Made by a program: the position numbers and the translations under genes
Shown: in pieces, positions 27,499 to 45,366 of the stretch
How the letters are laid out: each line of letters begins with the position of its first letter
How positions within the stretch are numbered: the first letter of the stretch is position 1
Source: Escherichia coli
Lineage (GTDB): Bacteria; Pseudomonadota; Gammaproteobacteria; Enterobacterales; Enterobacteriaceae
Strand: one strand, 5' to 3'
Assembly: GCF_041248615.1 (NCBI RefSeq)
Contig: NZ_CP158426.1
DNA length: 64,000 nucleotides
Notes under the pieces: model-generated
The model's input: only the letters and a program-made list of their open reading frames with translations
Databases searched by the model: none
Told to the model about the DNA's origin: nothing

Positions 27499-27560
27499 TT
27501 CTCCCCCTCATGTGATTCAGGCAGTTTACTCACCCCTTACAGGCCTCCTGCCATGCCCGG

Positions 27561-27585
27561 TGTTGTCGGCATTCGCTTACAACAA
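27561..27585. promoter_or_regulatory. Ogr-type late-promoter dyad (TGT-N12-ACA) between divergent gpP and gpO
   Basis: TGTTGTCGGCATTCGCTTACAACAA; centre about 76 and 80 bp from the two start codons. Confidence 0.5.
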
Positions 27586-27652
27586 ACGCACTTTGTCTGT
27601 CCCTGCCCCGTTTTGCCATCATGAGACAAACGATCATCACGAGGGCCCGACA

Positions 27653-28489
27653 ATGCCTGAACAGAAAAAAACATCCCGTAAAACATTCCGCGTGGCCGTT
27701 TCCGGTCCCACCGCAGACGGTCGCGAAATCAGTGCCGCAGATTTGCGCGCGGCGGCCAGTAACTTCAACCCTGAGATTTACGGCGCACGCGTGAACGTGG
27801 AGCACTGGCTTTCACCGGTTCCGTCCAGTGAATTTTCCGCCATGGGTGATGTGACGGCACTGAGCACAGAAGAAATCACCGAAGGTCCGCTGGTCGGTCG
27901 TACTGCGCTGTATGCGGAAATCGAACCCACCGACCGCATGAAAAATCTGGTCTCCCGGGGTAAGAAAATTTACTCCAGTATTGAGCTGGCACGAAATTTC
28001 ACCCCTACGGGCACCCCGTATCTTATTGGCCTTGCCATGACAGACACCCCGGCAAGCATCGGCACGGAGCGTCTTCAGTTCGCCCTGCAGCAGCGCCGTT
28101 CGGTCATGACCTTCAATAATCAGCAGACGGAAGCACCGATGTTCTCTGACGCCATTGAGGCTGAAGTGATCGAACTGACGGAGCGCCGCAGCGAGGAAGG
28201 TGCGCAGTGGCTTAACCGCGTGATGAACATGATTGGGCGAGGACGCAGGGCTGACGACACCCGGTTCTCCCGCATTCATGACGCCGTTGAGGGGATAGCC
28301 TCATCGCATGCCGACCTTCTCGACCGCTTCAGTGCACTGGAATCGCGCCATCAGGCAGACAGACAGAAAATCGCCACCCTGTCCACTGAGCTGGCAGAGC
28401 TGAAAAACAGACTGCGCGGACTGGACGCTGATCAGGAAAGTCGTTTTACGGCAACCGGCGGGCAGTCCAGACAACTGGCTGACTACTGA
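27653..28489 (+). CDS. capsid scaffold protein (P2 gpO-like)
   Basis: 278 aa from ATG 27653; precedes major capsid gene. Confidence 0.85.
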   Translation: MPEQKKTSRKTFRVAVSGPTADGREISAADLRAAASNFNPEIYGARVNVEHWLSPVPSSEFSAMGDVTALSTEEITEGPLVGRTALYAEIEPTDRMKNLVSRGKKIYSSIELARNFTPTGTPYLIGLAMTDTPASIGTERLQFALQQRRSVMTFNNQQTEAPMFSDAIEAEVIELTERRSEEGAQWLNRVMNMIGRGRRADDTRFSRIHDAVEGIASSHADLLDRFSALESRHQADRQKIATLSTELAELKNRLRGLDADQESRFTATGGQSRQLADY

Positions 28490-28517
28490 CAGAAATAACC
28501 ACAAGAGGTGATAACCG

Positions 28518-29657
28518 ATGAATCTGATCATGAGCGATGCCGCGCGGGCCGAGCTTTTTGCTTACCAGGCACAACAGGCGGAGATGAATAACATCACGAT
28601 ATCTGCGCTCTCCTCCCGCTTTTCGGTACAGCCGGCAGTGCAGCAGAGATTTGAAAACGCATCAAAGGAAAGCCATGATTTTCTTCAGAAAGCCAACAGC
28701 ATTGGTGTGACAGAGCAGAAAGGTGAAAAGGTACTCCTGGACACCACCGGGCCGGTTGCGCGCACGAACAGCAGTTATGACGGTACAAATCGTCGTAACC
28801 CGCTGAATGTGGTGGACATGAAAGCGCGACGCTATGAGTGCGAGCAGGTGAACTACGACACCTTCATCTCCTACCCTCAGCTTGACATGTGGGCCGGACA
28901 CCCTGACTTCCAGCTGCGTGTGAGTCGCCAGATTGCCAGACAGGTGGCACTTGATCGCATCATGACAGGTTTTAACGGTACGCACCATGCGGAAGTCTCG
29001 GATATAAAAAAACACCCGCGACTTGAGGACGTCAATAAGGGGTGGCTGCAGGATATCAGGGACCAGGCCCCGCAACGCGTCATGAAAGACGTGATGCTGA
29101 CTGCGCGCAATATGGACAATTCGGTGGCATACACAGGCAGATACGCCAATCCCGATGCACTGGTCCAGGATGCACGCTCATCCCTGCTTGACGAATGGCA
29201 CAAGGACGCAGACGACCTCGTTGTCATCATGGGGCGAAACCTCTTTAACTCCCTGCGCCTGCCGGTCCTGAACAGTATCAGCATGCAGAATGCGAATGCC
29301 GAACTGCTTGCCGGACAGCTCATTGTGTCAACGCGGACCATTGGCGGCCTTGATGTGTACCTTGCGCCATTTTTCCCGGCTCAGTCAATGCTCATCACCT
29401 CATTCAGCAACCTGTCGGTTTACTGGCAGAAGGGGTCCATGCGTCGTCTCATGAAGGATGAGCCCGAATACAACCGTATCGCCATCTATCAGTCCGTTAA
29501 CGACTGCTATGTGGTTGAGGACCATGGTAAGTGCGCACTGATTGAGAATATCAGCTTTGCCACATATGACCATGACGCGCCGGACTGGTACCGGGAGGGC
29601 ATAAAAGCACTGTCAGCGCAGGCTGAAGACAAGGATGCAGGGGAAGAGGAGGATTAA
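28518..29657 (+). CDS. major capsid protein (P2 gpN-like)
   Basis: 379 aa; SD AGAGGTG. Confidence 0.85.
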   Translation: MNLIMSDAARAELFAYQAQQAEMNNITISALSSRFSVQPAVQQRFENASKESHDFLQKANSIGVTEQKGEKVLLDTTGPVARTNSSYDGTNRRNPLNVVDMKARRYECEQVNYDTFISYPQLDMWAGHPDFQLRVSRQIARQVALDRIMTGFNGTHHAEVSDIKKHPRLEDVNKGWLQDIRDQAPQRVMKDVMLTARNMDNSVAYTGRYANPDALVQDARSSLLDEWHKDADDLVVIMGRNLFNSLRLPVLNSISMQNANAELLAGQLIVSTRTIGGLDVYLAPFFPAQSMLITSFSNLSVYWQKGSMRRLMKDEPEYNRIAIYQSVNDCYVVEDHGKCALIENISFATYDHDAPDWYREGIKALSAQAEDKDAGEEED

Positions 29658-29659
29658 CC

Positions 29660-30436
29660 ATGCTGACACCGGCACAGGCTCATTTCCAGCACGTGATGGC
29701 TTTACGGGCAGGAACGGCAGCAGAAAACGAGGATATCGTGGCCCGCACGGCTCATGAGCAGGTCCTTCACCGTCTGCGCCTGGCACAGCAACGCATAAAG
29801 GGCGTCCAGGCAAAAGCGGCAAAGGCCGCGCTCAAGCGTGAAATGCTGCCGGGTTTTGCAGGCTGGATAGACGGCACGCTGGAAGCCGACGGCGGACAGC
29901 AGGATGAGGTGATAGCCACACTCATGGTGTGGGCCGTGGACTGTGGCGACCTGGCGCTTGCACTGCGCATCGGGGATTATGTGGTTCGCCACAACCTCAC
30001 GATGCCTGACAACTTCGGGCGTACGGCAGCCACGGTACTGACCGAGGAAATCTGCAACCCTGTTCTGACACAGGCCGGAACGGATGCACACGCCGATTTG
30101 TCCGGCTACATCGAACCGCTGGACACCCTCTGGCAAATTGTCGCGAACCGGGACATGCCCGATGAGGTCCGCGCCAAGCTGTGCAAGGCATGCGCCTTTG
30201 CCCGTCGTGGCCTGACCGATGCCGACAGCATGGCGGTGAGTCTGAAGCTGTTCCGTGAGGCAATGCACCTTAACCCGAATGCGGGGGTAAAACGTGAGAT
30301 TGCCACGCTTTCACGGGCCCTGAAAAAGGCCGGACAGGATGAAGCCGCTGCCGCACAGGAGCCTGCGGCACAGAAAGATACAACCAGAGAACAGACCACG
30401 ACGCCGAAGGCGAAAGCGAAGGCGAAACGTGGTTAA
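29660..30436 (+). CDS. terminase small/endonuclease subunit (P2 gpM-like)
   Basis: 258 aa; conserved DMPDEVRAKL region recalled from P2 M. Confidence 0.85.
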   Translation: MLTPAQAHFQHVMALRAGTAAENEDIVARTAHEQVLHRLRLAQQRIKGVQAKAAKAALKREMLPGFAGWIDGTLEADGGQQDEVIATLMVWAVDCGDLALALRIGDYVVRHNLTMPDNFGRTAATVLTEEICNPVLTQAGTDAHADLSGYIEPLDTLWQIVANRDMPDEVRAKLCKACAFARRGLTDADSMAVSLKLFREAMHLNPNAGVKREIATLSRALKKAGQDEAAAAQEPAAQKDTTREQTTTPKAKAKAKRG

Positions 30437-30538
30437 CGGCTGACCCCGTCAGAAGGCGGCGTGCCGGGCGTTCCGGTTACGGTTTTCCGTTCCCCTTACA
30501 CCCGGCACCCACCGCCTTTTTTTCTGAAGGAGCGATTT

Positions 30539-31033
30539 ATGAGCATGGTCGCAAGACCGGAAGCCGCCCCTGCACGGGACGATATCCCCGACACCGACGA
30601 CGGCGACGCCACCATCACCGCCGGGGCATTCTGGCCGGAGATTGTGCTGCGGGAGCTGCGCCTTGCAGTACGCCTGCCGGGCCGCATCACCTCCACACGT
30701 CTGGCGCACGTTGCCACGGGAGCCGTGGCTCACGTCACGCGGGAGCTGGAAGAGTGGCAGAAGGCGCAGTCTGCCGCAGGGTTCAGCATCCTCGCAGAAG
30801 TGCCTGCCGCCACCATCAACGGTGAGAGCGTCAACGTATGGCATTACCGCAACGCCGTCTACAGCGCCACCCGCGCCCTGATTCTGGAACGCTGGCGGGA
30901 TGTGGACACCACTGATAAAGGGGACCGCCGGGCTGACGCACTGGATGAGCAGATGGAAGACTTATGGCGCGATGTGCGCTGGTCCGTGGCAGATATTCTG
31001 GGTCGCCCCCGTCTTTTTGCGGAGCTGGTGTGA
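30539..31033 (+). CDS. head completion protein (P2 gpL-like)
   Basis: 164 aa from ATG 30539 with SD GAAGGAG. Confidence 0.8.
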   Translation: MSMVARPEAAPARDDIPDTDDGDATITAGAFWPEIVLRELRLAVRLPGRITSTRLAHVATGAVAHVTRELEEWQKAQSAAGFSILAEVPAATINGESVNVWHYRNAVYSATRALILERWRDVDTTDKGDRRADALDEQMEDLWRDVRWSVADILGRPRLFAELV

Positions 31034-31230
31034 TGAAAGTGAGGGCACTCCAGGGGGATACCGTCGATTTACTCTGTTTCCGGCACTACGGCACCACGCA
31101 GGGGGTGACCGCACAGGTACTTGATGCCAATCCAGGGCTCTGCCGCCAGGTAATTCTGGAAGCGGGACAGGAGGTGGAAATGCCGGAGCCGGAAAGGAAA
31201 CAGCAACGCGAAAAGGTAAAGCTATGGTGA
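31033..31230 (+). CDS. tail protein X (LysM-like, P2 gpX-like)
   Basis: 65 aa MKVRALQGDTVDLLCFRHYG; ATG overlaps gpL stop. Confidence 0.85.
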   Translation: MKVRALQGDTVDLLCFRHYGTTQGVTAQVLDANPGLCRQVILEAGQEVEMPEPERKQQREKVKLW

Positions 31231-31514
31231 CGGGATTTTTTCAGCGCGTCAGTGACTGGATCACCTTCTGGGCGTCAGTGACGGCAACAACCATTGGTGT
31301 TATGACCATCAGCGAAAAAATTGCGCTGGCCGGGCTGCTTCTGGGGTCACTTTCCGCCATCCATGCCTGGTGCCACCGCAGGCGTACGGAGCAGGCAATG
31401 AAGCGCCGCAATGACCTTATCGCCCGCATCCTGGCACGTTCAGAAAACCGCGAGCTTCACGACGGTGAGAGACGGGCACTGGACAGCGTGAGACAGGACG
31501 GAGAAGAGCGGTGA
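31224..31514 (+). CDS. holin (pinholin-like, 2 TM)
   Basis: 96 aa; two TM segments then charged C-terminus; immediately upstream of endolysin. Confidence 0.7.
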   Translation: MVTGFFQRVSDWITFWASVTATTIGVMTISEKIALAGLLLGSLSAIHAWCHRRRTEQAMKRRNDLIARILARSENRELHDGERRALDSVRQDGEER

Positions 31515-32056
31515 AACTGCCGGTAAAACGTTATGCGGTGGCGGCCATTGTGGCGCTGGGCGTCTCCATGGCACCCGGTGAACTGAGAACCTCACGGGAA
31601 GCACAGATAAAAATCGCCACCCGGGAAGAGTGCCGGGCGACACCGTACCGTGATATTGCAGGAGTAATGACCGTGGGATGTGGTTCAACAGGGGGCGTGG
31701 AGAACCGGGTTTACGGAGAAAAGGAGGTGGCCCGCCGCTGGGTGAATGACCTGCGGCACGCGGAAAACTGTATCAACCAGAACTTCAGCGGTGCCGCCAT
31801 GCCCCAGTCCGCCTTTGAGGCGATGACCGACGCGGCGTTCAACGTCGGCTGTACCGGCCTGATGTGGTACCGGGACAGGAGCGGCAACCGGCAGCGCACC
31901 ACCATCTGGAAGCACGCACAGGCGCACCGCTGGGTGGCGATGTGCGGGAGACTGACCGATTTTGTCAACAGTGGCGGACGCCGCTCACAGGGGCTGGTTA
32001 ACCGCCGGGAGGAGTTCAGACAGTGGTGTCTTCGCGACACGGGAGGCAGCACATGA
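31511..32056 (+). CDS. SAR endolysin (T4/P21-type lysozyme, GH24-like)
   Basis: 181 aa; N-terminal signal-anchor; motifs YRDIAGVMTVGCG and NVGCTG; REEFRQWC tail as in phage-21 lysozyme. Confidence 0.8.
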   Translation: MKLPVKRYAVAAIVALGVSMAPGELRTSREAQIKIATREECRATPYRDIAGVMTVGCGSTGGVENRVYGEKEVARRWVNDLRHAENCINQNFSGAAMPQSAFEAMTDAAFNVGCTGLMWYRDRSGNRQRTTIWKHAQAHRWVAMCGRLTDFVNSGGRRSQGLVNRREEFRQWCLRDTGGST

Positions 32057-32460
32057 GACCGGTTTACGCCGTGATTGTTGCCCTCATGGTGACCACCCTG
32101 ACGGCGGCGGCCATGTGGCAGTCATACCGGCTGGGGCGTGCCGGTGAGGCACGTGACGCCGCAGAGCAGCAGCTGGGCGAATACAGCCGGGCGCTGCGTG
32201 AGTCCTCCGCCGTTATCAGCGATGCCTCCGCCGTACTGCATGAGGTGATGACGCAGCGACAGAAAAGGGCACAGGAAGGAGAAGTCAGACGTGAACAGCT
32301 TCGCGAAATTGCTGCGACGGATGAGTGCGCCGGCACTCTTCCTGACCACCGTTTTACTGACCGGCTGCGCGAACACACGGAACGCGCCACTGCCCGCGCC
32401 CTCCTTCCGGTTCATTCCGGCGGGACTGACGACGGGAACACGGCCCCCGCCCTTCCCTGA
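32053..32460 (+). CDS. i-spanin (Rz / P2 LysB-like)
   Basis: 135 aa; ATGA overlap with endolysin; N-terminal TM then coiled coil. Confidence 0.7.
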   Translation: MRPVYAVIVALMVTTLTAAAMWQSYRLGRAGEARDAAEQQLGEYSRALRESSAVISDASAVLHEVMTQRQKRAQEGEVRREQLREIAATDECAGTLPDHRFTDRLREHTERATARALLPVHSGGTDDGNTAPALP

Positions 32461-32605
32461 ACACCCCACCTGGGGAAATATCGGGATATGGAGCGACAGC
32501 CTCCTGGATGCACTGGAAACCTGCAACGCAGACAAACGGGCCATTGAGGCGATGGAGCGCCGGAGACTCAACCGACAGAACGGAGAGGCGCATGCTGAAA
32601 AGTAA
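32291..32605 (+). CDS. o-spanin lipoprotein (Rz1 / P2 LysC-like), out of frame within and beyond the i-spanin gene
   Basis: GTG start with SD AGGAAGGAG; signal peptide with lipobox LLTGC; Pro-rich. Confidence 0.65.
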   Translation: MNSFAKLLRRMSAPALFLTTVLLTGCANTRNAPLPAPSFRFIPAGLTTGTRPPPFPEHPTWGNIGIWSDSLLDALETCNADKRAIEAMERRRLNRQNGEAHAEK

Positions 32606-33056
32606 ATCCCTGAGCACACACATGAGTACAGCGTGCCGGTGGTGCAGGGCCAACCCGGAAAAGTTCACCGTGTTCATTGAACGTGGCGGGATAGAGACCA
32701 CCGGCGAGACGCCGACGTTCGTGTACAACTACCGGCTGGTGATGTTCGTGATGGACTACACGGGCGATCTGGACAACCTGACGCTTCCACTGATTGTCTG
32801 GCTGGCAGAGAACCAGCCGCAGTTGCTGCTTAATCCTGAGCGCAACAACGATATTCAGTTCACGGCGGCCATTAACGACGACGACAGCGCGGACGTGCTG
32901 TTTGAGCTGCCGTTACGTGAACGCGTGCGCGTCACCCGCAGGGATGACGGCACCCTCATGACAGAACATCTACCGGAGCCGAAATCACGCATCCCGCAGG
33001 ACGGCGACTGGTCACACATTCTGGAGGATGTGACGTGGAACATTGTCACCGGATAA
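32592..33056 (+). CDS. tail completion protein (P2 gpR-like)
   Basis: 154 aa from ATG 32592 with SD GGAGAGG. Confidence 0.8.
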   Translation: MLKSKSLSTHMSTACRWCRANPEKFTVFIERGGIETTGETPTFVYNYRLVMFVMDYTGDLDNLTLPLIVWLAENQPQLLLNPERNNDIQFTAAINDDDSADVLFELPLRERVRVTRRDDGTLMTEHLPEPKSRIPQDGDWSHILEDVTWNIVTG

Positions 33057-33071
33057 CACGCGGAGAATGTT

Positions 33072-33728
33072 ATGGGGAAACTGAGATACCGTAACCTCGT
33101 TCCCGCTGAAGGAATGAGTAACATGTTTGTCAATATCCGGCTGGCAACCAGCCCGCAGGCAGTGAAGCGCATTGCCGCGCATGTGGGTAAGGAGCTGCGG
33201 CGCGTGAACCAGAGCCGGATGCGCGCCCAGAAAGCGCCGGACGGTTCGGTGTGGACACGCCGTAAACGCCGTATATCACGCCTTCAGGAGCGCATCAGCT
33301 TTATCTGGCAAAACCAGAACCGCACCCTGAAAAACTGGCATCACGGTTCAGGAAAATACGGCCAGACCATCACCGGCTGGGATGAAGACCGGAGCGGCAT
33401 ACGTACCTTTTACCGGAGTGATATCCTCCGTTTCCTTGAAATCAGGACACGCCGCATCAACCGTGACACCACAAAAACGGTGCCGATGTTTGCGAAGCTG
33501 CGCACGGCCCGTTATCTGAAAGTGAAGGCGGACGCATCAGGCGTGACGGTGGGCTACAGCGGCGTGGCGGCACGCATTGCCCGCGTTCACCAGTTCGGGG
33601 AGCGCGACCGGGTGGCCGCAGGGATGTATACGGATTATCCGGCCCGTGAACTTCTTGGAATAACACCGGCAGATGAACGACTTATTCAGCGTATCATTAT
33701 GGACAATATCGCGAGGGCTGTGGCATGA
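33072..33728 (+). CDS. virion morphogenesis / tail completion protein (P2 gpS-like)
   Basis: ORF open from 33072 (SD GGAG); true start may be internal (33114) giving a shorter product. Confidence 0.7.
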   Translation: MGKLRYRNLVPAEGMSNMFVNIRLATSPQAVKRIAAHVGKELRRVNQSRMRAQKAPDGSVWTRRKRRISRLQERISFIWQNQNRTLKNWHHGSGKYGQTITGWDEDRSGIRTFYRSDILRFLEIRTRRINRDTTKTVPMFAKLRTARYLKVKADASGVTVGYSGVAARIARVHQFGERDRVAAGMYTDYPARELLGITPADERLIQRIIMDNIARAVA

Positions 33729-34306
33729 ACGCGGAATTAATGCGCCTTATCAGCAACATCATCAGAACCGGCGTGATTTTCGACGTGAACCCGCAGACCT
33801 GGGAGGTCCGGGTGCGCAGTGGCGGACTGGAGACAGGCTGGCTTCGCTGGAGCACCGCGCGGGCGGGCGCGTTCAGTGTCTGGGTGCCGCCAGCCACCGG
33901 TGAACAGGTGGCGTTCGTCTGTATCGGTGGTAATCCCGAAACCGCGATAATCATCGGCAGCCTCTGGAGCGATGATATCCCGGCACCGGGCAGCACACTG
34001 AAGGAAATCATCATGACAGCACCGGACGGTGCGGTATTCCGCTACGATGCAGACGCCGGTGCACTGGAGGTTAAGGGGATTAAAACAGCCAGCATTCAGG
34101 CCGACACGCGCATCACCCTGGACACGTCGGAGGTGGTGTGTACCCGCAAACTTATCACCGCCACCCTGGAGGTGCAGAACGGCGGCGAGATGCGCGGCAG
34201 CATATCCCACAGCGGCGGCAGCCTGACATCCAACGGTATCACCGTTCATACGCACACCCACGGTGGCGTCAGGACGGGCCCGGGCACCACGGGAGGCCCG
34301 CAATGA
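33725..34306 (+). CDS. baseplate spike protein (P2 gpV-like)
   Basis: 193 aa; ATGA-coupled to gpS. Confidence 0.85.
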   Translation: MNAELMRLISNIIRTGVIFDVNPQTWEVRVRSGGLETGWLRWSTARAGAFSVWVPPATGEQVAFVCIGGNPETAIIIGSLWSDDIPAPGSTLKEIIMTAPDGAVFRYDADAGALEVKGIKTASIQADTRITLDTSEVVCTRKLITATLEVQNGGEMRGSISHSGGSLTSNGITVHTHTHGGVRTGPGTTGGPQ

Positions 34307-34653
34307 CCGCTGTTTACAGGGGGATGAACCCGCAGGGAACCGGCACGCTGAGCGACAGCGAACACCTGAAAAACAGCGTGCGGGATATCCTGACCACACC
34401 GCCAGGCAGCCGGGTGATGCGCCGCGAATACGGCAGCCTGTTACCGGACCTCATCGACGAGCCCATGAACGACACCACGCGTTTACAGTGCATGAGCGCC
34501 ACGGTGACTGCGCTGGCGCGCCATGAACCCCGTATAGCACTGCAGAACGTCGATGTGAACTGGCGGGCTGGCGGACGCGCCGTGGTGACGTTATCCGGCA
34601 TCATCACCGAAACCATGCAGAACATCACATTCAGTATCACCCTGAGGGAGTAA
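34303..34653 (+). CDS. baseplate wedge protein (P2 gpW-like)
   Basis: 116 aa from ATG 34303 overlapping gpV stop. Confidence 0.85.
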   Translation: MTAVYRGMNPQGTGTLSDSEHLKNSVRDILTTPPGSRVMRREYGSLLPDLIDEPMNDTTRLQCMSATVTALARHEPRIALQNVDVNWRAGGRAVVTLSGIITETMQNITFSITLRE

Positions 34654-34656
34654 ATC

Positions 34657-35553
34657 ATGCCTTCCGTTGACCTGTCACAGTTACCGGAACCGGCCATCAT
34701 CGCGCAGCCGGATTTTGAGTCCATCCTGGCAGACATTAAAACCATGATGGTGAGCTCCTTCCCGGAAGAATACCGCGCCGCCGTCACCCGTGCCCTTACT
34801 CTGGAATCCGAGCCATTGAACATCATTTCCCAGGCCATGGCCTTTCGTGAAATGCTGCTTCGCCAGCGCATCAATGAAGCCGCCCGCGCCTGCATGCTCA
34901 GCCACAGCCGGGGCAGTGACCTGGACAATCTGGCCGCCAACAACAACACCCGCCGCCTGGTCATTCATCCGGCCACTGATACCACGGAAGCAGTGATGGA
35001 AAGCGACACATCGCTGCGTCTGCGTGCCCAGTCAGCCTGGGACGGCCTGAGTGTGGCCGGACCGTCCGGCGCGTATGAGTATTTTGCCCGGAGCGCAAGC
35101 GGTCTTGTCCGTGATGCGCGCGCCATCAGCCCGTCACCGGCCACAGTCACCGTCTCCATCCTGTCAGCAGACGGTGACGGCACCGCCGGTGAGGCGTTAC
35201 TGAACACGGTGCGCACCGCCCTGAATGCCGAGAACGTGCGCCCGGTTGCCGACCGCCTGACTGTGCAGAGTGCTACCATCGTGAACTGGGTAATGGAAGC
35301 GAAGCTGTATTTTTATCCAGGGCCGGAGTCTGAACCCATGCTTGCGGCCGCTGACGCCGCTTTCCGTGCATGGCTGGCAGACCAGGGCCGTATCGGTCAG
35401 GACGTGGCCCTGTCAGCCATCACTGCAGCGCTGCATGTTCACGGTGTCCAGCGCGTTGAGGTCATAAAACCCACGCAGAACATCACCATCAGTGACACTC
35501 AGGCAGCCAGATGTACCACATTCAGCATCAGCGAAGGAGGACGCAATGAGTGA
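34657..35553 (+). CDS. baseplate protein (P2 gpJ-like)
   Basis: 298 aa. Confidence 0.85.
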   Translation: MPSVDLSQLPEPAIIAQPDFESILADIKTMMVSSFPEEYRAAVTRALTLESEPLNIISQAMAFREMLLRQRINEAARACMLSHSRGSDLDNLAANNNTRRLVIHPATDTTEAVMESDTSLRLRAQSAWDGLSVAGPSGAYEYFARSASGLVRDARAISPSPATVTVSILSADGDGTAGEALLNTVRTALNAENVRPVADRLTVQSATIVNWVMEAKLYFYPGPESEPMLAAADAAFRAWLADQGRIGQDVALSAITAALHVHGVQRVEVIKPTQNITISDTQAARCTTFSISEGGRNE

Positions 35554-36109
35554 CAGGAAAAAAACAGACAGCGCACAGCACAGTACATCACTGCTTCCAC
35601 CGTCCGCAGGGCCATTCATGCGCGCCACAGAGGCGACAGGAGTACGCATCAGTACCATACCGGTGGACGCCGACACCCTGTGGTCGCCGGACCGCTGCCC
35701 TGCTCACCTCCTGCCCTACCTTGCATGGGCATGTTCCGTTGACAGCTGGGACCGCAACTGGCCGGAAGAGACCAGGCGACAGGTGATTCGGGACGCATGG
35801 ATGATACATCGCCACAAAGGGACCATCAGTGCACTCCGCCGCATCGTTGAACCACTGGGCTACCTCATCCGTGTATCAGAATGGTGGGAGTTTGACGGCT
35901 CGCCCGGGACCTTCACCATTGAGATTGGCACACTTGAAACCGGAGTAAGTGAAGAGCTGCATGAAGAAATGGAGCGTCTGATTGCCGATGCGCGCCCCGT
36001 CAGCCGCCACCTCGTGGGGCTTAGTATCATCCAGGAAATACACGGTGCCATTTACGCCGCTGCCGCAGGTTACGACGGCGACATCATCACCATTTACCCG
36101 GAAGACTGA
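35546..36109 (+). CDS. baseplate protein (P2 gpI-like)
   Basis: 187 aa from ATG 35546 overlapping gpJ stop. Confidence 0.8.
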   Translation: MSDRKKTDSAQHSTSLLPPSAGPFMRATEATGVRISTIPVDADTLWSPDRCPAHLLPYLAWACSVDSWDRNWPEETRRQVIRDAWMIHRHKGTISALRRIVEPLGYLIRVSEWWEFDGSPGTFTIEIGTLETGVSEELHEEMERLIADARPVSRHLVGLSIIQEIHGAIYAAAAGYDGDIITIYPED

Positions 36110-36112
36110 ACC

Positions 36113-38347: not shown

Positions 38348-38958
38348 TGAGTAACACTGCAGTTCTGGATGAAAACGGTATCGCCACTTTCGCAGGCGAT
38401 ATCACTGTATATCACTATGATGAGGAAACCCGGGAATACACCTCATCCTCTGTGGAGTATCTCGCCCTGGGGGTGGGTACCCCGGCACATTCATGCGCCG
38501 ATGCCCCGCCAGAGGCAATGCCGGGTTACGTGATTTGCCGGACGTCCACGCTGGACGGGTGGGAGTATGTCCCCGATCATCGTGGAGAGACGGTATACAG
38601 CACAGAGAACGGTAATCCGGTCCAGATTACCCAACCAGGTGACTACCCGGAAGGGACAACGACAAAACAGCCTGCCACACCATGGGATACCTGGAACGGT
38701 GAGGCGTGGGTAACCGATACAGAACGGCAGCAAGCCGAAGAGCTGGAGGTTGCCAGACAGCAACGCAAGGAACGGGTGGATCAGGCGATGAAGTCCATCG
38801 ACCTCATCAACCTTAAGTTGCGGGCAGGTCGCAGTCTGACACCAGAAGAAACGGCAAAACTGAATGCCGTGCTGGATTATATCGACGAGCTGAACGCACT
38901 GGATATCAGCACGGAGCCTGAAATAAGCTGGCCGGAAACACCACCAGAAATGGAATGA
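38347..38958 (+). CDS. tail fibre assembly chaperone (P2 gpG-like)
   Basis: 203 aa; ATG overlaps gpH stop. Confidence 0.8.
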   Translation: MSNTAVLDENGIATFAGDITVYHYDEETREYTSSSVEYLALGVGTPAHSCADAPPEAMPGYVICRTSTLDGWEYVPDHRGETVYSTENGNPVQITQPGDYPEGTTTKQPATPWDTWNGEAWVTDTERQQAEELEVARQQRKERVDQAMKSIDLINLKLRAGRSLTPEETAKLNAVLDYIDELNALDISTEPEISWPETPPEME

Positions 38959-39028
38959 GCGGGGAAAAGGAACGGGCATTCATAAATAATTCATCATGCA
39001 GGTGCCGCAAGAATGCGGCACATTACCT

Positions 39029-39517
39029 TCACATCAGATCATTTACGCCGCTTACTGTGGTATTCCAGACCGAACTTAACTTCCCTTTCATTCCCGAAAG
39101 CATATCAGACACCGGCGACGAGGCCATACTCTCCCGCAAATCCTCATCACAGCGTTCCAGACTGACAGTGAACTCAATTTTTTTGGCCTTACCGTGGCGG
39201 TCAAGTTCGCTTCGCGTTGTGCGGACAGCCGTTATCACATACATGCCGTATATCTGCCCCACACCGTCAATCAGCGGCCATGGGCGACCAGTGTAAGCCT
39301 GCGTCGTTAAAAGGCTGAGGGAAACCTCACCGCCGGTAATTTCGGGATAAAGCACACCGGACAACGTGATCTGGTCGTCACCCGCCCCGATATACTGCCA
39401 GCTGGCCGAACGATTGATGCGTTCATTTTTAACGTGGCGCCAGGTTTTATTATGTTGCAGTTGTTGATGAGGCAGCGTACGCAACTCAAAAACAAACATG
39501 CCGTAAATCATCATCAT
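39029..39517 (-). CDS. tail protein (P2 gpU-like)
   Basis: 162 aa; last gene of the reverse-oriented tail block. Confidence 0.8.
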   Translation of the reverse strand: MMMIYGMFVFELRTLPHQQLQHNKTWRHVKNERINRSASWQYIGAGDDQITLSGVLYPEITGGEVSLSLLTTQAYTGRPWPLIDGVGQIYGMYVITAVRTTRSELDRHGKAKKIEFTVSLERCDEDLRESMASSPVSDMLSGMKGKLSSVWNTTVSGVNDLM

Positions 39518-39528
39518 GCGAGGTACTC

Positions 39529-42500
39529 CTAATCTCTGTCACGGAAACTACCGACTGTCTGGCGGATACGGCGTTCCATTTCCGCACGGACGGCATCACC
39601 CACCATTTTTGCCAGTTCGCGCGGGTTTTGCGTGTGAACATCATGCAGGTGAATATGCAGTTCGCCAGTTAATCCCCATGGTGCCGGCTCACTCTGGCGC
39701 GGTCGGGGCGATGCGGGGGATATGGGCTGGCGCACAGCCTCAACCACCGGACGGGATGTTGCCGCCATCACTGGTGTCATTAGCGGGGAGAACGTCGGCA
39801 TGACATCGTGAGTCATAACCGGTTTGATCACCGGCGGAACCACTGGCGTAATATTACCGGACAGTACCGGACGGACGACCGGAGGAATAACCGGCACATT
39901 ATTCACGGACACCACCGGCTTCACGACCGGCGACACGTTCGCCGTGGTGGATATCAGCGGCGAAACACTGACAGGCGGTGGCGCTGGCAGCGGTGGCAAC
40001 GAAGGCACACTGACCGACGGCACCTGCGGCAGTCTGACAGGTGGCTCACTGACACTACCCGGTAACAGGGAAGCTGCTCGGTTAAAGCGTTCCTCCTTCC
40101 ACTCACCACGAACGGCCAGCGCTTCCGGCAGGTTTTTAAAGATAATATCGCCGGGACCAGCGCGTTTTTTCGCCTGTTTCGCCTCATCCAGCAGACCACC
40201 GGTGTTATCGACGATTTTGTTCAGGCGGCGCATAGTGCCGGTATTCTCCCCCGTCAGGGGTGGTTGCCCCCCTTTGGGTTTTTCGCCGTCTTTTTTATCC
40301 TCGTCCTTTTTCGGCGGATTAATGACGTTAACATCCGCCAGAAGCATGGCAGCTTTCTCGTTCAGCAACTCCTTCTGTTTTAGTTCTTCCGCCTTTTTCC
40401 GGGCGCGCTCAACCGCCGACGGAATCAGCCCGAGTTTTTCCAGCACCCGGGTTAATGAGTCAATCAGCAGCGTAACCGGACCGGTCACCAGATTGCTGAT
40501 AAACTCCCCTACCTTCTGCCCGAACGTACGCCCGGCTTCCGTGCACTTGTCCAGCTCATCCTTTGTTGTGCTTACCGGCGCGAACAAATCCACGAACCAC
40601 TGCCACACACGCCCGATTGTCTGCCCGACATACTCAAACAGCGGTCCCAGTGGTGCCACAGCCTCGCGCAGTGGCGTAAGCCCCTGCCACAGGCCGGACA
40701 AGAACCCGCCCACGACAGCCTTCAGCTGGTCCCAGTGCCGCCAGATAAGCACTGCCGCACCGACCAGTGTCGCCACCACAAGGCCCACCGGACTTAACAG
40801 AAAACCCAGCGCCCCGCCAAGTGCGCCCACCGCACCACTCACCATCCCCCACAGTGCGGGCAGACCTGACAGTCTGAGCGCCAGTATTCCGATACCGCGC
40901 CCCAGTGAAATCAGTGCGCCGCCAGGTGAAGTGAACGCAGCCAGCAGACCACCACGCAGCGCGCCAAGTCCCGCCTGCACACCACGAAGCCGCCCCGCAA
41001 CTACGCCCAGCAGTGCAGCAAACCGTCCGGCACCGGAGGTGATACCGACAAACAGCACGCGCCAGCCACCGATACCGCCCAGCGGACCACCGAGTACGCC
41101 GCGCAGCTGCGTCAGTAACGGCAGCGCACGACCGAGGCCGGATGTGCCGGTCAGCAGGGCAAACCCAAGACGCAGTTTTGCCAGCGGCCCCATCAACACA
41201 CCAGTGGCAAGTGACAGCGCCCCCATGGCCGCAACCGCAGCCAGCAGTACACCACCGGCAATCAGCAGTTGTTTTGTCAGTTCAGGGTGCGCCTGAGCCA
41301 GCGCGGTGACTTTCGCAATAACCCGGGTGAACGACTGCGTGACAGAACGCAGCGGCCCGTCAACGAGGTCAGCGACACGGATACGCAGTCCTTCCCATGC
41401 GCTGTTCAGTGATTTCAGGTCACCGTCCAGGTTATCAGCCATAACACGGGCAGTGTGATTAAGTTCCCCGGTGGCCAGTTCAATCTCCTGCGTAAGACGG
41501 GGAAGATTATTTTCCCCCGCCGCAGTGACAAGATTCATCAGGGAAACATAGGACTCCTGCCCGGCAATAGCCCTGAAAAAGGAGACCTGCGCGGCATTAC
41601 CGTATTTTCGGGTGGCCTGGTACAGCTCATTCAGGATATTTTCCATCCGGCGCATGTTCCCGTAAGCATCCTGCGTCTCCACGCCAAGCTCTTTCAGTGC
41701 CATTGCAGCGGCCTTCGGCGGATCAACCAGACGTGACAGACTGGCACGCAGCGCCGTACCTGCATCACTTCCACGGATCCCCACACTGCCAAGGACACCC
41801 GTCATGGCTGCCGCCTGTTCAAGGGACAGGCCAAGTGAAGCTGCAACCGGACCCGTGTACTTCATGGTTTCACCCAGTGAACGGAGATCCGTATTGGTTC
41901 GTGTGAAGGTGGCGGCCAGCGTGTCACCCACGCGATCCATCTGGTCAGCGGACAGACCAAACTGTGTGAGGATATTCGAACTGATATCGGCAGTCTGTCC
42001 CAGGTCCATCCCTGCAGCCATTGCCAGATCAAGCACGCCGGGTAGCGCCGCCTGTATGGCCTGTGGTGTGAAGCCGGCCATGGCAAGGAACGCCTGACCG
42101 CTGGCAGCATCACCGGCGGTAAACTGCGTTTCAGAGCCCAGCTTAATGGCCTGTTCGCGCAGCGCCTTAAACTGCGGACTGTTTTTGTCAATACGGGTCA
42201 GCGCCTGGACGCGTGACATCTCCTTACCAAAACTGACCGCCGGTTGCAGGAAACGTCCGGCCGCATAGCCGCCTGCCGCCGCCGTACCAACCGCCGTAAG
42301 TCCGACCGTTTTAAGTTTTCCCGCCGTCTCCTGAGCACGGGAATATTGCTGGCGTGCCTGCGTGACACGTGCCAGCGCCTGCCGTTCGCGTTCCAGCTGG
42401 TCGTTGTATTGCTGTGTTCGCCGTATGGCCTGTTGAATGGTGTTGTCACTGCCGGAAAGCGCAATACCGTGGCGCCGCAGCTCACCACCCAGTTCGCGCA

Positions 42501-42840
42501 TTCGCTGAACTTCACGCGCACGGACCTCATTGAGACGCTCAAGTTTGAGGCTCAAATCGTTCATCAGCTTTTTCTGTTTGTCAGACAGCACGGTTCCGGC
42601 GCGCTGAATTTGCTGAAGTGCGCTTAACTGGCGTTGCGCCCTGACAATGCCGTTTCCGGCCTTGTTTGCAGCCTCGCGGGCGCGATCAAATGAACGGGCG
42701 TAGCGTTCCAGGTTTTTGATCGCACCCTGCGTTCTCTGTATGGAGTCGCCAAGCTGGCCCATCATGCGACGGGCGTTTTCGGTGGGACGGGTCAGCCTGT
42801 CAACAGCGCTGAAGGCGACCCGTATATCAAGCGTTTTCAT
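39529..42840 (-). CDS. tail tape measure protein (P2 gpT-like)
   Basis: 1103 aa from ATG 42838-42840; coiled-coil/Ala-Gly-rich core; Pro/Val-rich C-terminus. Confidence 0.85.
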   Translation of the reverse strand: MKTLDIRVAFSAVDRLTRPTENARRMMGQLGDSIQRTQGAIKNLERYARSFDRAREAANKAGNGIVRAQRQLSALQQIQRAGTVLSDKQKKLMNDLSLKLERLNEVRAREVQRMRELGGELRRHGIALSGSDNTIQQAIRRTQQYNDQLERERQALARVTQARQQYSRAQETAGKLKTVGLTAVGTAAAGGYAAGRFLQPAVSFGKEMSRVQALTRIDKNSPQFKALREQAIKLGSETQFTAGDAASGQAFLAMAGFTPQAIQAALPGVLDLAMAAGMDLGQTADISSNILTQFGLSADQMDRVGDTLAATFTRTNTDLRSLGETMKYTGPVAASLGLSLEQAAAMTGVLGSVGIRGSDAGTALRASLSRLVDPPKAAAMALKELGVETQDAYGNMRRMENILNELYQATRKYGNAAQVSFFRAIAGQESYVSLMNLVTAAGENNLPRLTQEIELATGELNHTARVMADNLDGDLKSLNSAWEGLRIRVADLVDGPLRSVTQSFTRVIAKVTALAQAHPELTKQLLIAGGVLLAAVAAMGALSLATGVLMGPLAKLRLGFALLTGTSGLGRALPLLTQLRGVLGGPLGGIGGWRVLFVGITSGAGRFAALLGVVAGRLRGVQAGLGALRGGLLAAFTSPGGALISLGRGIGILALRLSGLPALWGMVSGAVGALGGALGFLLSPVGLVVATLVGAAVLIWRHWDQLKAVVGGFLSGLWQGLTPLREAVAPLGPLFEYVGQTIGRVWQWFVDLFAPVSTTKDELDKCTEAGRTFGQKVGEFISNLVTGPVTLLIDSLTRVLEKLGLIPSAVERARKKAEELKQKELLNEKAAMLLADVNVINPPKKDEDKKDGEKPKGGQPPLTGENTGTMRRLNKIVDNTGGLLDEAKQAKKRAGPGDIIFKNLPEALAVRGEWKEERFNRAASLLPGSVSEPPVRLPQVPSVSVPSLPPLPAPPPVSVSPLISTTANVSPVVKPVVSVNNVPVIPPVVRPVLSGNITPVVPPVIKPVMTHDVMPTFSPLMTPVMAATSRPVVEAVRQPISPASPRPRQSEPAPWGLTGELHIHLHDVHTQNPRELAKMVGDAVRAEMERRIRQTVGSFRDRD

Positions 42841-43045
42841 GCTCTGCGTTCCCGCTGCGAAGGGCCGCCCGCTCACGCCAGGCGACCACCTCGCCGGGAT
42901 CCATCAGGAAGATTTCAGCGGGAGACCAGTTGAAAATAACGGCGATATCCGCCACAAAGTCTTCAATGTGCTCAAAGGGCACGACGGTTATCAGCCTGCC
43001 GTCGCCGCCCCGCTCTTCCCGCCAGAGTCCTGACCGGCCAAAAAA
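42827..43045 (-). CDS. gpE' extension reached by programmed -1 frameshift
   Basis: slippery TTTTTTG (plus-strand 43039-43045); -1 frame open until a stop overlapping the gpT start. Confidence 0.5.
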   Translation of the reverse strand, partial: FFGRSGLWREERGGDGRLITVVPFEHIEDFVADIAVIFNWSPAEIFLMDPGEVVAWRERAALRSGNAEHENA

Positions 43046-43353
43046 TTAACCGCCACCCCGCACAGCTGAATAAAATCAGCGGACCCCATGCGCTTAAGCA
43101 GAACCTCGTCCAGTCGCGGCGAAGTGACGCGCGGGAGTAACTCAAACATCGCGTCCGTTTTCATGTTCAGCACGTCAAGCAGTGACAGCCCGCGCAGTGA
43201 ACCGGCCTGCTGTACAGCAGGCGTGATTTCCACATACGTGATTTTTTTGTTACCGAGCACAAGGGGCGTTTTCAGCGTCACGCCGCGCTCACTGGTCACG
43301 TCCGCCGCATCAGCACCGTCAGTAACAGGGGCAACAACCGGATTTTCTTTCAT
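42991..43353 (-). CDS. tail assembly chaperone (P2 gpE-like)
   Basis: 120 aa; slippery heptamer TTTTTTG near 3' end. Confidence 0.75.
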   Translation of the reverse strand: MKENPVVAPVTDGADAADVTSERGVTLKTPLVLGNKKITYVEITPAVQQAGSLRGLSLLDVLNMKTDAMFELLPRVTSPRLDEVLLKRMGSADFIQLCGVAVNFLAGQDSGGKSGAATAG

Positions 43354-43403
43354 GCATAAAACCTCAAATCAGGGGGCGACGCCGCGCGCCGCCGTGGGAA
43401 ACA

Positions 43404-43922
43404 TTAACCACCAAGACCAATCGCCGAGCGCACGCGGTCCGGGAAGACGTTTTTGCCGTCCTTGCGTTCGATGTGGTTCAGTAAATCAATCTCCAGCACC
43501 GGACGGTCGTTAATGCTGAGTTTGTAGTAGGTACTCCTGACCGCATAGGTGTGAGACGTGACCTCACCCTGTTTTGCCTCCCCCGTATCAATTTCCGTCA
43601 CGCGGCCGCGAAGCTCAATTTCATACAGGTCGCTCTGCTCTTCATCGTTGTAGTACTCACCGACAAAGCGCAGCAGCGTACCGTCGATCGTGCCGCCGTA
43701 CTTAAGGAACAGTTCGCGGGTCGGCCCGCCCATGGTGAAACTCGCATCCAGCGCGCCGTCATCCAGACCAAGGTCGATATTCACCGCGCCGGCCATACCA
43801 CCACCGCGATAGGCTTCCGTTTTACGGGTCAGTTTGGGGGGCGTGAAGCCGGTCACCCTGCCAATCTGGTTCACCCCGTCAGTAAACAGCGTGAACACCC
43901 TGAGATTTTTTGGTACGGCCAT
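43404..43922 (-). CDS. tail tube protein (P2 gpFII-like)
   Basis: 172 aa; conserved KLTRK and EIDTGE regions. Confidence 0.85.
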   Translation of the reverse strand: MAVPKNLRVFTLFTDGVNQIGRVTGFTPPKLTRKTEAYRGGGMAGAVNIDLGLDDGALDASFTMGGPTRELFLKYGGTIDGTLLRFVGEYYNDEEQSDLYEIELRGRVTEIDTGEAKQGEVTSHTYAVRSTYYKLSINDRPVLEIDLLNHIERKDGKNVFPDRVRSAIGLGG

Positions 43923-45205
43923 TAAGCACCTCCAAGCGTCGCAAATGCAGGACCAAAGAATTCATCAGTAAACGCCTGGTAAAGTTCCATATCCTCAAGC
44001 GGCGGAACGGGCGTGTACTTGTAGCGGATACGCACGCGTCCCTGACGAAGTTCCGTGGTGCTGTTATCCACCACGTCATACCAGCACTCCGCACCAATGA
44101 GACGTCCTGACGTAACCAGCGCATCCAGTTTTGCGCGAATTGCGCTTAACACGTCTTTCACATTAGCAGGGGTCAGCGGGGCATCAATCGTTTCAAACTG
44201 CGCTTCCGCAATGGAATCAGCCAGCACCTGAGCGGTTCGCGTGTACACCTCAAAGATATACGCCTTCGTTTCCGGCGTACGGTTGCCCCAGAAGCGGAAA
44301 CCGTTACGGCAAATGATGGTAGTGATTTCCTTGTTGTTGAGATTGTTGGCATCGCTGTCTTCGGACTGAAGGGACCAGAACACCGGGCTGGAAATACCCA
44401 GCACATTTCTTACCGGCACGTTGGACAGCGATTTATGCCAGCCCTGTTCGTGGTCAATACGTGCACGTAAACCGCAGGCGTACGCCGCAGCCGGGAAGAC
44501 CTCATTAGCGCCGGATTTCGGGTTATGGGCGATGAAGTCCGGCCAGACCAGCATAAGTTCGCGCTCGTTAAATCTGGCGCGGTAGCTGATTGCATCGGCG
44601 GGCTTCTTGCAGTTGTGACAGCCCGCGTAGACAAATGCGCGAAGTTTTTCTGCAATTACACACAGGGATTTTGTGACAGCTTCAGTATCCAGTCCGGGAG
44701 CTGCGATGATGCGCGGACGGTAACCGATGGCATCATCCTGTTCAGCTATCAGAAGTGCATACATACCGGTATAATTACCGTCGCCATCCGTGCCACCAAT
44801 GACATACTGGTCCTGCGTTTTGTGTGGGTATACAGGATGTGCATCTTCAGACTCATCAATACCAAAAAATGCCCTGTCTTCAGGATCCAGATGACCGAAT
44901 GATGTAACTCCTGTATCCGGGGCGCCCTGAGAACTGGCATCAGGAACGCGCACCACAATCACCTTCGTGCTCACCTGGTCGGCGACAGCCTTAAGCGATT
45001 TGTAAAGCGTCCCCTTTGTGCCGGCCTTACCCAGCACATCACTGACGCGGGTCAGCAGTGTGGGTTTGTTCAGCGGGAACAGAGTTTCATCCGCGTCATC
45101 TGCCGTAGCCACAATACCAATAACACTGGAATCCACATCATTAATGGCGGTGGCAAGGCCGGTACTTTCCCTTACGCGCGCACCATGAAAGCGTGTTTCA
45201 CTCAT
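43922..45205 (-). CDS. tail sheath protein (P2 gpFI-like)
   Basis: 427 aa from ATG 45203-45205 (MSETRFHGARV); track ORF start at 45352 is an unsupported extension. Confidence 0.85.
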   Translation of the reverse strand: MSETRFHGARVRESTGLATAINDVDSSVIGIVATADDADETLFPLNKPTLLTRVSDVLGKAGTKGTLYKSLKAVADQVSTKVIVVRVPDASSQGAPDTGVTSFGHLDPEDRAFFGIDESEDAHPVYPHKTQDQYVIGGTDGDGNYTGMYALLIAEQDDAIGYRPRIIAAPGLDTEAVTKSLCVIAEKLRAFVYAGCHNCKKPADAISYRARFNERELMLVWPDFIAHNPKSGANEVFPAAAYACGLRARIDHEQGWHKSLSNVPVRNVLGISSPVFWSLQSEDSDANNLNNKEITTIICRNGFRFWGNRTPETKAYIFEVYTRTAQVLADSIAEAQFETIDAPLTPANVKDVLSAIRAKLDALVTSGRLIGAECWYDVVDNSTTELRQGRVRIRYKYTPVPPLEDMELYQAFTDEFFGPAFATLGGA

Positions 45206-45278
45206 ATGTTTCACCCTTGTCTGGCTGGTTGATTTTGCGTAATCATTACCCACACACGCGGTAATCTCACCCCTTTGA

Positions 45279-45302
45279 TGTTGTCTCCTGACAGCGACAA
45301 CA
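45279..45302. promoter_or_regulatory. Ogr-type late-promoter dyad between divergent gpFI and gpD
   Basis: TGTTGTCTCCTGACAGCGACAACA; centre about 85 and 76 bp from the two start codons. Confidence 0.5.
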
Positions 45303-45366
45303 AAACAGCCATTCAACGCCGCTGCGGTGCATGAAACCATTACAGAACGCACCAGGAGAGAACACC

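Follow-up and report, generated by a model that had tools for sequence, protein, structure and literature searches.

The late promoters of P2-type phages require an activator, and they also require contact with the C-terminal domain of the RNA polymerase alpha subunit (the rpoA109 phenotype). The P2 record (NC_001895) annotates a single 'activator binding site; pO, pP promoters' at 3057-3087, and the two mapped transcription starts, at 3016 on the minus strand and 3127 on the plus strand, each lie 55.5 bp from the centre of the dyad, midway between the terminase gene P and the scaffold gene O. The record of phage 186 (NC_001317) likewise gives one B-protein site (3798-3817) for 'activation of pV and p12 promoters', and in Smp131 both PP' and PO' have been assigned to one dyad (PMC3931495). 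The use of one site by the divergent P and O promoters, which the original prediction for the DNA analyzed here had put forward, is therefore established P2 biology.

Our analysis covers a window of 64,000 nucleotides, the whole stretch of DNA under study, which contains a P2-like prophage of E. coli NRZ14408 encoding an Ogr/Delta zinc-finger protein. The prophage has just two divergent late-gene spacers, P/O (154 bp) and FI/D (161 bp), and each of them holds one activator-type site, as is also the case in its relatives. We consider it likely that both dyads are Ogr-family sites, with dyad 1 serving PP and PO, and dyad 2 serving PF together with a new promoter, PD, for D and probably ogr. The coordinates of all features are collected in Table 1; the start codons of P (27498, minus strand), O (27653, plus), FI (45205, minus) and D (45367, plus) agree with the PGAP annotation and with the PHROG and Pfam identities.

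Table 1. Dyads, predicted promoter elements, genes and terminator, in window coordinates.
Feature	Position	Strand	Description
Dyad 1	27561..27584	none	TGTTGT-CGGCATTCGCTT-ACAACA, centre 27572.5; proposed shared Ogr-type site for divergent P and O promoters
Dyad 2	45279..45302	none	TGTTGTC-TCCTGACAGC-GACAACA, centre 45290.5; Ogr-type site in the FI/D spacer
PP -10, TAAACT	27523..27528	-	Predicted start 27516(-), 56.5 bp from dyad 1 centre; leader 18 nt
PO extended -10, TGcCATCAT	27614..27622	+	Predicted start 27629(+), 56.5 bp from dyad 1 centre; leader 24 nt
PF -10, AATGAT	45242..45247	-	Predicted start 45235(-), 55.5 bp from dyad 2 centre; leader 30 nt
PF partial -35, TCAC (GTGA on FI strand)	45267..45270	-	-35 to -32 of predicted start; xTGA of TTGACA
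PD extended -10, TGaAACCAT	45332..45340	+	Predicted start 45347(+), 56.5 bp from dyad 2 centre; leader 20 nt
gpP, terminase large subunit	25747..27498	-	PHROG E 2.9e-153; PGAP; first gene of leftward P-Q unit
gpO, capsid scaffold/protease	27653..28489	+	Pfam Phage_GPO E 3.9e-87; PHROG; first gene of rightward unit
gpFI, tail sheath	43922..45205	-	PHROG E 1.8e-117; Pfam sheath domains; PGAP; heads leftward FI-FII-E-T-U block, extending to 39029
gpD, tail protein	45367..46458	+	PHROG tail protein E 4.8e-147; Pfam Phage_GPD; transcribed away from FI
ogr homologue, 83 aa	46502..46753	+	Pfam Ogr_Delta (PF04606) E 4.9e-14, 52.4 bits against cut-off 26.3
Terminator, first after D-ogr	46871..46897	+	GC hairpin with T7 tract; PD transcript probably ends here

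The original prediction of one dyad per divergent spacer is borne out by an exact match in each, and most of its details stand with small corrections. Dyad 2 had been placed correctly, and the interval proposed for dyad 1 (27561-27585) ends one base too far. The 7-bp symmetry TGTTGTC...GACAACA ascribed to both is found at FI/D only, whereas the P/O site reads TGTTGTC...TACAACA and has arms of 6 bp. The distances to the flanking start codons, given as 76-85 bp, come close to the measured values of 74.5 and 80.5 bp for dyad 1, and 85.5 and 76.5 bp for dyad 2. The tail block, which had been described as inverted, has the standard layout of the P88-like clade and is no local oddity.

The two exact matches to TGTTGT-N12-ACAACA in 64 kb compare with 0.01 expected, none of 100 dinucleotide shuffles contained two or more, and a scan of the 64 kb allowing one mismatch found no extra site; in species-representative genomes, the exact-pattern scan returned zero matches. 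When the prophage was scanned with a weight matrix, dyad 2 (21.0 bits) and dyad 1 (20.5 bits) stood at the top, with the next best site at 9.9 bits. The extended 6+6 form alone is exceptional in this way: the bare TGT-N12-ACA is uninformative by itself, since it is found 10 times in 64 kb where 16.2 occurrences are expected, a deficit and no enrichment, and its remaining eight matches lack any promoter context. Looser matches, with two or three mismatches (at 3050, 13220, 24556, 57019, 32737 and others) occur at chance frequency and lack a -10 element at the right offset, except for two borderline cases, 32737 and 22698/22701, the latter inside ISEc12. As a separate observation, this prophage copy carries the ISEc12 insertion and its tape-measure gene is flagged as a pseudogene by PGAP; with an IS element, the copy may be non-inducible.

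These frequencies argue against chance palindromes. Each dyad could nevertheless form a stem of 6-7 bp with a loop of 10-12 nt, as an RNA or DNA hairpin such as a terminator would, but a reading of the dyads as chance palindromes or hairpins with no promoter role is scarcely credible. Every relative keeps the dyad in place, but the 12 bp between its arms vary freely, as is typical of a site bound by protein and not of a hairpin, and no loss of the dyad was seen in functional relatives. Dyad 1 has neither a following T-run nor a terminator call. The sole call in the spacer of dyad 2 (minus strand, 45323-45304) has a weak stem of 6 pairs, 3 of them G-C, outside the dyad, and takes in only the right arm of the dyad, as its T-rich tail; the five calls in the dyad 2 region, against 2.2 expected by chance, fall within about 1.5 sd.

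A protein other than Ogr, either a host factor or a phage regulator of the C or Cox type, might also be thought to bind the dyads, since TGT-N12-ACA is also the PpsR/CrtJ consensus of photosynthetic bacteria and the motif alone is thus non-specific. PpsR/CrtJ itself, to our knowledge absent from E. coli, was rejected as belonging to the wrong organisms. Binding by any such protein is very improbable, given that the sites agree in sequence and position with the activator sites annotated in P2 and 186, that an ogr homologue lies 1.2 kb away, and that the sites are confined to late-gene promoters, with none in the early/immunity region by mismatch and weight-matrix scans. Both dyads adjoin late morphogenetic genes, those for terminase and scaffold in one case and for tail sheath and gpD in the other. 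The product of the ogr homologue is presumed, from its sequence, to be the activator binding both dyads; it shares 42% identity with P2 Ogr (E 7e-15), and its cysteines C4, C7, C32 and C37 give the spacing CX2CX24CX4C, compared with CX2CX22CX4C in P2 Ogr (PMC3931495).

A promoter scan of the two spacers found no -35/-10 pair of consensus type, as expected if the promoters are activator-dependent; -10-like hexamers are present on all four sides. Starts were placed at the last base of the hexamer plus 7, a rule that fits the mapped starts of P2 at PO, PP and PF. All four predicted starts then lie 55.5-56.5 bp from a dyad centre, against 55.5 bp mapped in P2, and the cores between paired starts measure 113 bp at P/O and 112 bp at FI/D, against the mapped 111 bp of P2. 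In the mechanism that we propose, an Ogr-family zinc-finger activator would bind each dyad some 55.5-56.5 bp upstream of two back-to-back σ70 late promoters, all four of which would have a -10 element and no usable -35, and would contact the C-terminal domain of the RNA polymerase alpha subunit. Because the site is palindromic, a symmetric activator would show the same face to RNA polymerase on either side, so that a -10 element at mirror distance would suffice for bidirectionality. The four starts, the binding of Ogr, the dependence of PD on it, the co-transcription of D with ogr and the mode of contact with RNA polymerase are what we infer from these comparisons.

At P/O, dyad 1 would serve PP, for the leftward P-Q unit, and PO, for O onward to the right, as in P2 and 186. 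It corresponds to the annotated shared sites of both phages and was found at the equivalent position in 74 related loci. The window and P2 share the single central dyad, nearly the same starts (predicted at +/-56.5 bp and mapped at +/-55.5 bp, respectively) and a P-side -10 element of the form TAnnCT without a -35, which at the same offset reads TAATCT in relatives and, from the mapped start, TAGCCT in P2. They differ in the symmetry of the dyad, which is perfect (6+6) in the window but not in P2, where the right arm reads CCATCC; in the -10 of PO, which is TG-extended here and GAAACT in P2; and in their PP and PO leaders, which are shorter in the window. The TGCCATCAT of PO is invariant across all P88-like and more distant P/O spacers. 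The p12/pV pair of 186 has the geometry of dyad 1, its promoter features ending at -55.5 and +56.5, but its activator is the orthologue B, which differs from that of the window, and the right arm of its site is degenerate (CCAGTC).

The divergent FI/D junction is the standard P88-like layout, present in at least four Peduoviridae genera and in 1,388 of 5,426 complete E. coli genomes, and FI lies divergently beside D in all 80 related viral loci. Each of the 21 dyad/-10 spacer types from viral contigs combines a single dyad with an nATnAT at 55.5 bp towards FI and a TGn-extended -10 at 55.5-56.5 bp towards D. The arrangement of these elements is kept in P88, phiT5282H, Kp4845-1, KSP20 and 3LV2017, which together represent four ICTV genera plus Serratia; the FI-side distance is 56.5 bp in 3LV2017 and 55.5 bp in the other four.

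To locate the conserved positions of this spacer, 12 lineages with a median pairwise identity of 40% were stacked without gaps on the dyad; they share ancestry and are not 12 independent trials. The columns conserved in at least 10 of the 12 are mainly those of the dyad, of PF -11, -8 and -7 with the xTGA, and of PD -15, -14, -11 and -7, so that on both sides they fall on key positions of a σ70 -10 element. On the PF side they lie at -48.5, -47.5 and -44.5 from the dyad 2 centre, and the partial -35 columns are conserved in 10 to 12 of the 12 lineages. On the PD side TG, A and T recur in 11-12 of 12 at +40.5/41.5, +44.5 and +48.5, which correspond to -15/-14, -11 and -7 if the start is at +55.5. 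An alternative view of the conserved D-side (A/G)TG as a start codon for D was discarded, since an open, in-frame reading from it into D exists in just 3 of the 12 lineages. Within dyad 2 itself, G, T, T and ACAAC are invariant (12/12) and the final A is found in 11/12. Most relatives have a degenerate half-site on the FI/P side (CGTTCT, TGTTCT); the dyad is thus often no true palindrome there, and its two sides may be non-equivalent. The shared control of FI and D suggested by the original prediction is supported by this comparison, with a mirror geometry conserved across the 12 diverged lineages.

Since D has no upstream gene on its own strand, its promoter must lie inside the 161-bp spacer. 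This promoter could be an Ogr-independent extended -10 promoter whose mirror distance from the dyad is coincidental, with dyad 2 activating PF alone: the D-side element carries a TG motif, and a TG-extended -10 can make the -35 and an activator dispensable for σ70. We regard this as unlikely, although less so than the alternatives above. In every lineage the D-side -10 keeps its distance from the dyad to within 1 bp, even though the leader varies in length by up to about 40 bp, and there would be no reason for this were the dyad irrelevant to PD; the spacer ranges from 160 to 203 bp, but the core enclosed by the predicted starts keeps a length of 111-112 bp, and of 111 bp in nearly all relatives. 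These phages also have a TGn-extended -10 of this kind, at an identical offset, in PO, whose counterparts in P2 and 186 are annotated as activator-dependent. A terminator scan found no plus-strand terminator between D and ogr, so that a constitutive PD would express the late activator in lysogens, presumably to their harm. We therefore favor dyad 2 as a site that would activate PF and PD alike, with PD driving D and probably ogr.

A third, PV-type site upstream of V, for which the original prediction had suggested a search, was found neither by mismatch scan, nor by an invariant-position pattern (three genomes), nor by weight matrix, a search that does not reach sites as weak as P2's own (5-9.6 bits in the weight matrix). 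S and V overlap, which leaves no intergenic room for such a site. These points allow a broader reading of the P88-like phages, which we offer tentatively and at slightly less than even confidence: the whole late regulon would be run from only two Ogr boxes, each firing two promoters mirror-placed at -55.5. With no separate PV, O through G would form one long unit, and the short PD-D-ogr unit would be a direct positive-feedback loop for the activator. The inversion of FI-U would have turned a unidirectional PF site into a bidirectional one because that site is palindromic.

Our literature search found no description of a shared FI/D site, and no late-promoter or late-transcription data for P88-like phages. 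The shared FI/D site appears to be a previously undescribed, yet unsurprising, second copy of the P/O design in a very common phage group, a prophage type that about a quarter of sequenced E. coli carry, O157:H7 and O104:H4 strains among them. The four predicted starts and two activator boxes provide a testable promoter map. More generally, at a palindromic activator site a rearrangement can create a regulated promoter almost free of cost, as just a -10 at mirror distance is needed. El-Robh and Busby reportedly described, in 2002, one CRP site serving divergent promoters; a symmetric activator upstream of back-to-back promoters can activate both, although the protein family differs and the case is an analogy only.

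Dyad 2 is the counterpart of P2 PF and 186 pJ, and we propose that it serves D too. It shares with them its position upstream of FI, the orientation of its half-sites, the conserved FI-distal arm kGTTGT, a -10 offset of 55.5-57.5 bp and a TGA-containing -35-like element, CTGACA in P2 PF being placed similarly to the GTGA of the window PF. P2 PF, P2 PV and 186 pJ, where no late gene diverges, serve as a negative control: their -10 at 55.5-56.5 bp is on the gene side only, with none on the mirror side. In P2 and 186, the operon FI...U-D-ogr is read from a unidirectional promoter, whereas in the window D and ogr are detached and diverge from the same dyad; the FI-U block points away from D, and the PF site would also serve the rightward PD. 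The understanding of late control in P2 is unchanged by this, its principle having been set at PP/PO decades ago.

Only two copies of the extended dyad TGTTGT-N12-ACAACA occur in the 64 kb scanned: the P/O site at 27561-27584, between the genes for the terminase large subunit (P) and the capsid scaffold/protease (O), and the FI/D site at 45279-45302, between the tail sheath (FI) and tail protein (D) genes. The expected count is 0.01, none of 100 shuffles gave two copies, and no third site was found in the 64 kb with up to one mismatch. By itself the minimal TGT-N12-ACA consensus is uninformative, with 10 occurrences observed in the window and 16.2 expected. A weight matrix for activator sites, built from 19 sites, scored the FI/D dyad at 21.0 bits and the P/O dyad at 20.5, the next best position reaching 9.9. 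As the original prediction held, each divergent spacer contains a single dyad; from its centre to the start codon on either side the distances are 74.5 and 80.5 bp at P/O, and 85.5 and 76.5 bp at FI/D. Its coordinates for the P/O site (27561-27585) had the correct start, the true end being 27584, and the 7-bp-arm symmetry it described for both sites is present at FI/D and not at P/O. An exact TGT-N12-ACA match at 21257-21274, TGTTGCAGCGACACAACA, alternatively readable as TGTTG-N8-CAACA, lies in the early region, with a hypothetical gene (21328-21651) 54 bp downstream; it departs from the 24-bp pattern of the late sites at four positions, and it has no -10 element at the late-promoter offset.

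At P/O the finding restates known biology, and the shared or bidirectional control proposed for this spacer agrees with the records of P2 and 186, which give one activator site for both promoters. For P2, one feature of the reference record (3057-3087) bears the label 'activator binding site; pO, pP promoters'. The record also gives the mapped starts, 3016 (-) and 3127 (+), and the midpoint of the P2 dyad, TGTTGT-N12-CCATCC, falls at 3071.5, precisely 55.5 bp away from each. The 186 record lists one site for its activator, the B protein, 'for activation of pV and p12 promoters', and the promoter features end 55.5 and 56.5 bp from the site centre. For phage Smp131, one dyad, read on both strands, was assigned to PP' and PO' (PMC3931495). 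The P/O spacer in the window carries TAAACT on the P side and TGcCATCAT on the O side. Starts placed 7 nt past the last base of each hexamer, a rule that reproduces the mapped P2 starts of PO, PP and PF (the late promoters of O, P and FI), are predicted at 27516 (-) and 27629 (+), each 56.5 bp from the centre, and a matching arrangement was found in 74 related loci.

Gene identities assigned with PHROGs and Pfam agree with the PGAP annotation. The window holds a P2-like prophage, and its flank includes cydD-trxB-lrp-ftsK.

Late genes and the activator homologue of the prophage in the window
Gene	Coordinates	Strand	Basis
Q	24692-25747	-	PHROGs/Pfam, PGAP
P	25747-27498	-	PHROGs/Pfam, PGAP
O	27653-28489	+	PHROGs/Pfam, PGAP
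N...G	runs on to 38958	+	PHROGs/Pfam, PGAP
U	39029-39517	-	PHROGs/Pfam, PGAP
T	39529-42876	-	PHROGs/Pfam, PGAP
E	42991-43353	-	PHROGs/Pfam, PGAP
FII	43404-43922	-	PHROGs/Pfam, PGAP
FI	43922-45205	-	PHROGs/Pfam, PGAP
D	45367-46458	+	PHROGs/Pfam, PGAP
Ogr/Delta zinc-finger protein	46502-46753	+	PF04606

The homologue of Ogr, the late-gene activator of P2, is an 83-aa protein that matches its Pfam family with an E-value of 4.9e-14, shares 42% identity with P2 Ogr and spaces its cysteines as CX2CX24CX4C. The prophage may be defective: ISEc12 (IS21 family; istA and istB) is inserted at 21830-24132, with the early/replication region on one side and the portal gene on the other, and a nearby gene at 20643-20777 is annotated as truncated by PGAP. 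The tape-measure frame (T) is open for 1,115 aa, with a PhageMin_Tail domain at residues 240-439 and no Pfam match in its C-terminal ~370 aa; despite this open frame, the PGAP feature is limited to 40645-42840 and is called a pseudogene 'missing C-terminus'.

Divergence of FI and D could be read as a local inversion. We rejected this explanation, given that the junction is common to related loci, genomes and named phages: a divergent FI adjoins D in all 80 related viral loci and in 1,388 of 5,426 complete E. coli genomes, O157:H7 and O104:H4 strains among them, as well as in P88 (Xuanwuvirus), phiT5282H (Novemvirus), Kp4845-1 (Reipivirus), 3LV2017 (Reginaelenavirus) and Serratia KSP20. Since D has no same-strand gene upstream, a promoter is needed within the 161-bp FI/D spacer.

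To compare this spacer, representatives of 12 lineages were stacked ungapped and anchored on the dyad, columns being called conserved at ≥10/12; flank identity was ~40% (median). The dyad itself, the activator site, retains G, T and T at -10.5, -8.5 and -6.5 and ACAACA from +6.5 to +11.5. On the FI side, A, T and T at -48.5, -47.5 and -44.5 correspond to -10 element positions -7, -8 and -11 for a start at -55.5, and TCAC from -23.5 to -20.5 corresponds to the xTGA of a -35-like element. On the D side, TG at +40.5/+41.5, A at +44.5 and T at +48.5 match an extended -10 (-15/-14, -11 and -7) for a start at +55.5. Another six conserved columns lie isolated at other positions of the stack. The (A/G)TG that is conserved on the D side was also considered as a start codon and rejected, since it shares an open frame with D in just 3 of the 12 lineages.

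Among viral contigs, all 21 dyad/-10 spacer types have hexamers at the 55.5-bp start offset on both the FI and D sides (the D side of the window is at 56.5), as do the five named phages, apart from the FI side of 3LV2017, which is at 56.5. Spacer length ranges from 160 to 203 bp and the core between predicted starts is 111-112 bp, so that all length variation sits in the leaders; the predicted starts in the window are 45235 (-) for FI and 45347 (+) for D. Neither the P/O nor the FI/D spacer contains a consensus -35/-10 promoter. As controls, three promoters that lack a divergent late partner (P2 PF, 186 pJ and P2 PV, the promoter upstream of V) carry a -10 at 55.5-56.5 on the gene side only, and none was found at the late-promoter offset on their mirror sides. 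A perfect TATAAT lies on the mirror side of the PV dyad (P2, 10190-10225), facing the divergent orf30; its start would be ~48 bp from the centre, an offset unlike that of late promoters.

In a close relative (L003, gpD 93% identical), the FI/D spacer (2300-2500) is identical to that of the window in its FI-side half and differs from the dyad onward, and its dyad region, CGTTCTCACCGTTCGCTTACAACAAAC, shares the 16-mer TTCGCTTACAACAAAC with the P/O dyad of the window; together, these features suggest recombination, either within spacers or from one late site to the other. In the P88 record (NC_026014), a 43-aa 'hypothetical protein' at 33155-33286 spans the FI/D spacer and dyad and is probably spurious, and the ogr homologue downstream of D (within 34433-34928) is unannotated, sister records calling it a transcriptional regulator.

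A search for a further dyad upstream of gpV had been proposed; the weight matrix shows nothing near R, S or V, although weak PV-like sites such as P2's own score 5-9.6 bits and would escape the scan. In the window prophage, P88 and 3LV2017, paired -10 elements occur at the P/O and FI/D sites only, and S and V overlap. No convincing + strand terminator was found between O and G. On the simplest reading of these sequences, O to G would form one unit and two boxes would run the whole late regulon.

For P2, the literature on late activation points to contact with the alpha C-terminal domain of RNA polymerase, and CRP is an example of an activator that serves promoters in both directions from a single site. 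Most likely, Ogr binding at each dyad would recruit RNA polymerase to the promoter on either side; given the symmetry of the site, just a -10 at the mirror distance would make it bidirectional. No terminator was found between D and ogr, the first on the + strand being at 46871-46897, and therefore PD, the predicted promoter of D, would raise ogr expression too, closing a short positive-feedback loop. For ogr itself there are also candidate -10 hexamers (TAAAAT twice, 46456-46468), as there are in P2.

Between ogr and serS lies a dense repeat array (46760-50070), in which one terminator hairpin, TTTGCCCGCCGGAAAGCGGGCATTTTTTT, is present in nine copies. Five copies of a ~145-bp unit (starting at 46760, 47424, 48596, 49245 and 49442; 84% mean column identity), each a GGTTGAGn-17-TAGATT promoter-like box, ~95 nt and a terminator, look like repeated small-RNA genes. 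Rfam gave no family at gathering score in the array, and sub-threshold AgvB and RyhB matches cover only 3'-terminal stretches (48678-48732) ending in a terminator hairpin. The array may be a remnant of serial integrations at one attachment site. Two hok/sok-type loci (47643-47802 and 49648-49805) match sok (RF01794) at 46.2 and 40.7 bits (E 2e-8 and 6e-7), both short of the gathering score (59); the PGAP annotation includes a Hok/Gef protein (47789-47929), and P88 has a hok/gef gene at the equivalent place.

Our literature search found no published description of the shared-site arrangement at FI/D. The tail operon of P2 and 186, FI-FII-E-T-U-D-ogr, runs in one direction from PF (pJ in 186), whereas in the window FI-U runs leftward and D-ogr rightward. 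The FI/D half, well supported by comparison among related sequences, would represent a new instance of the P/O design in a common, little-studied clade.
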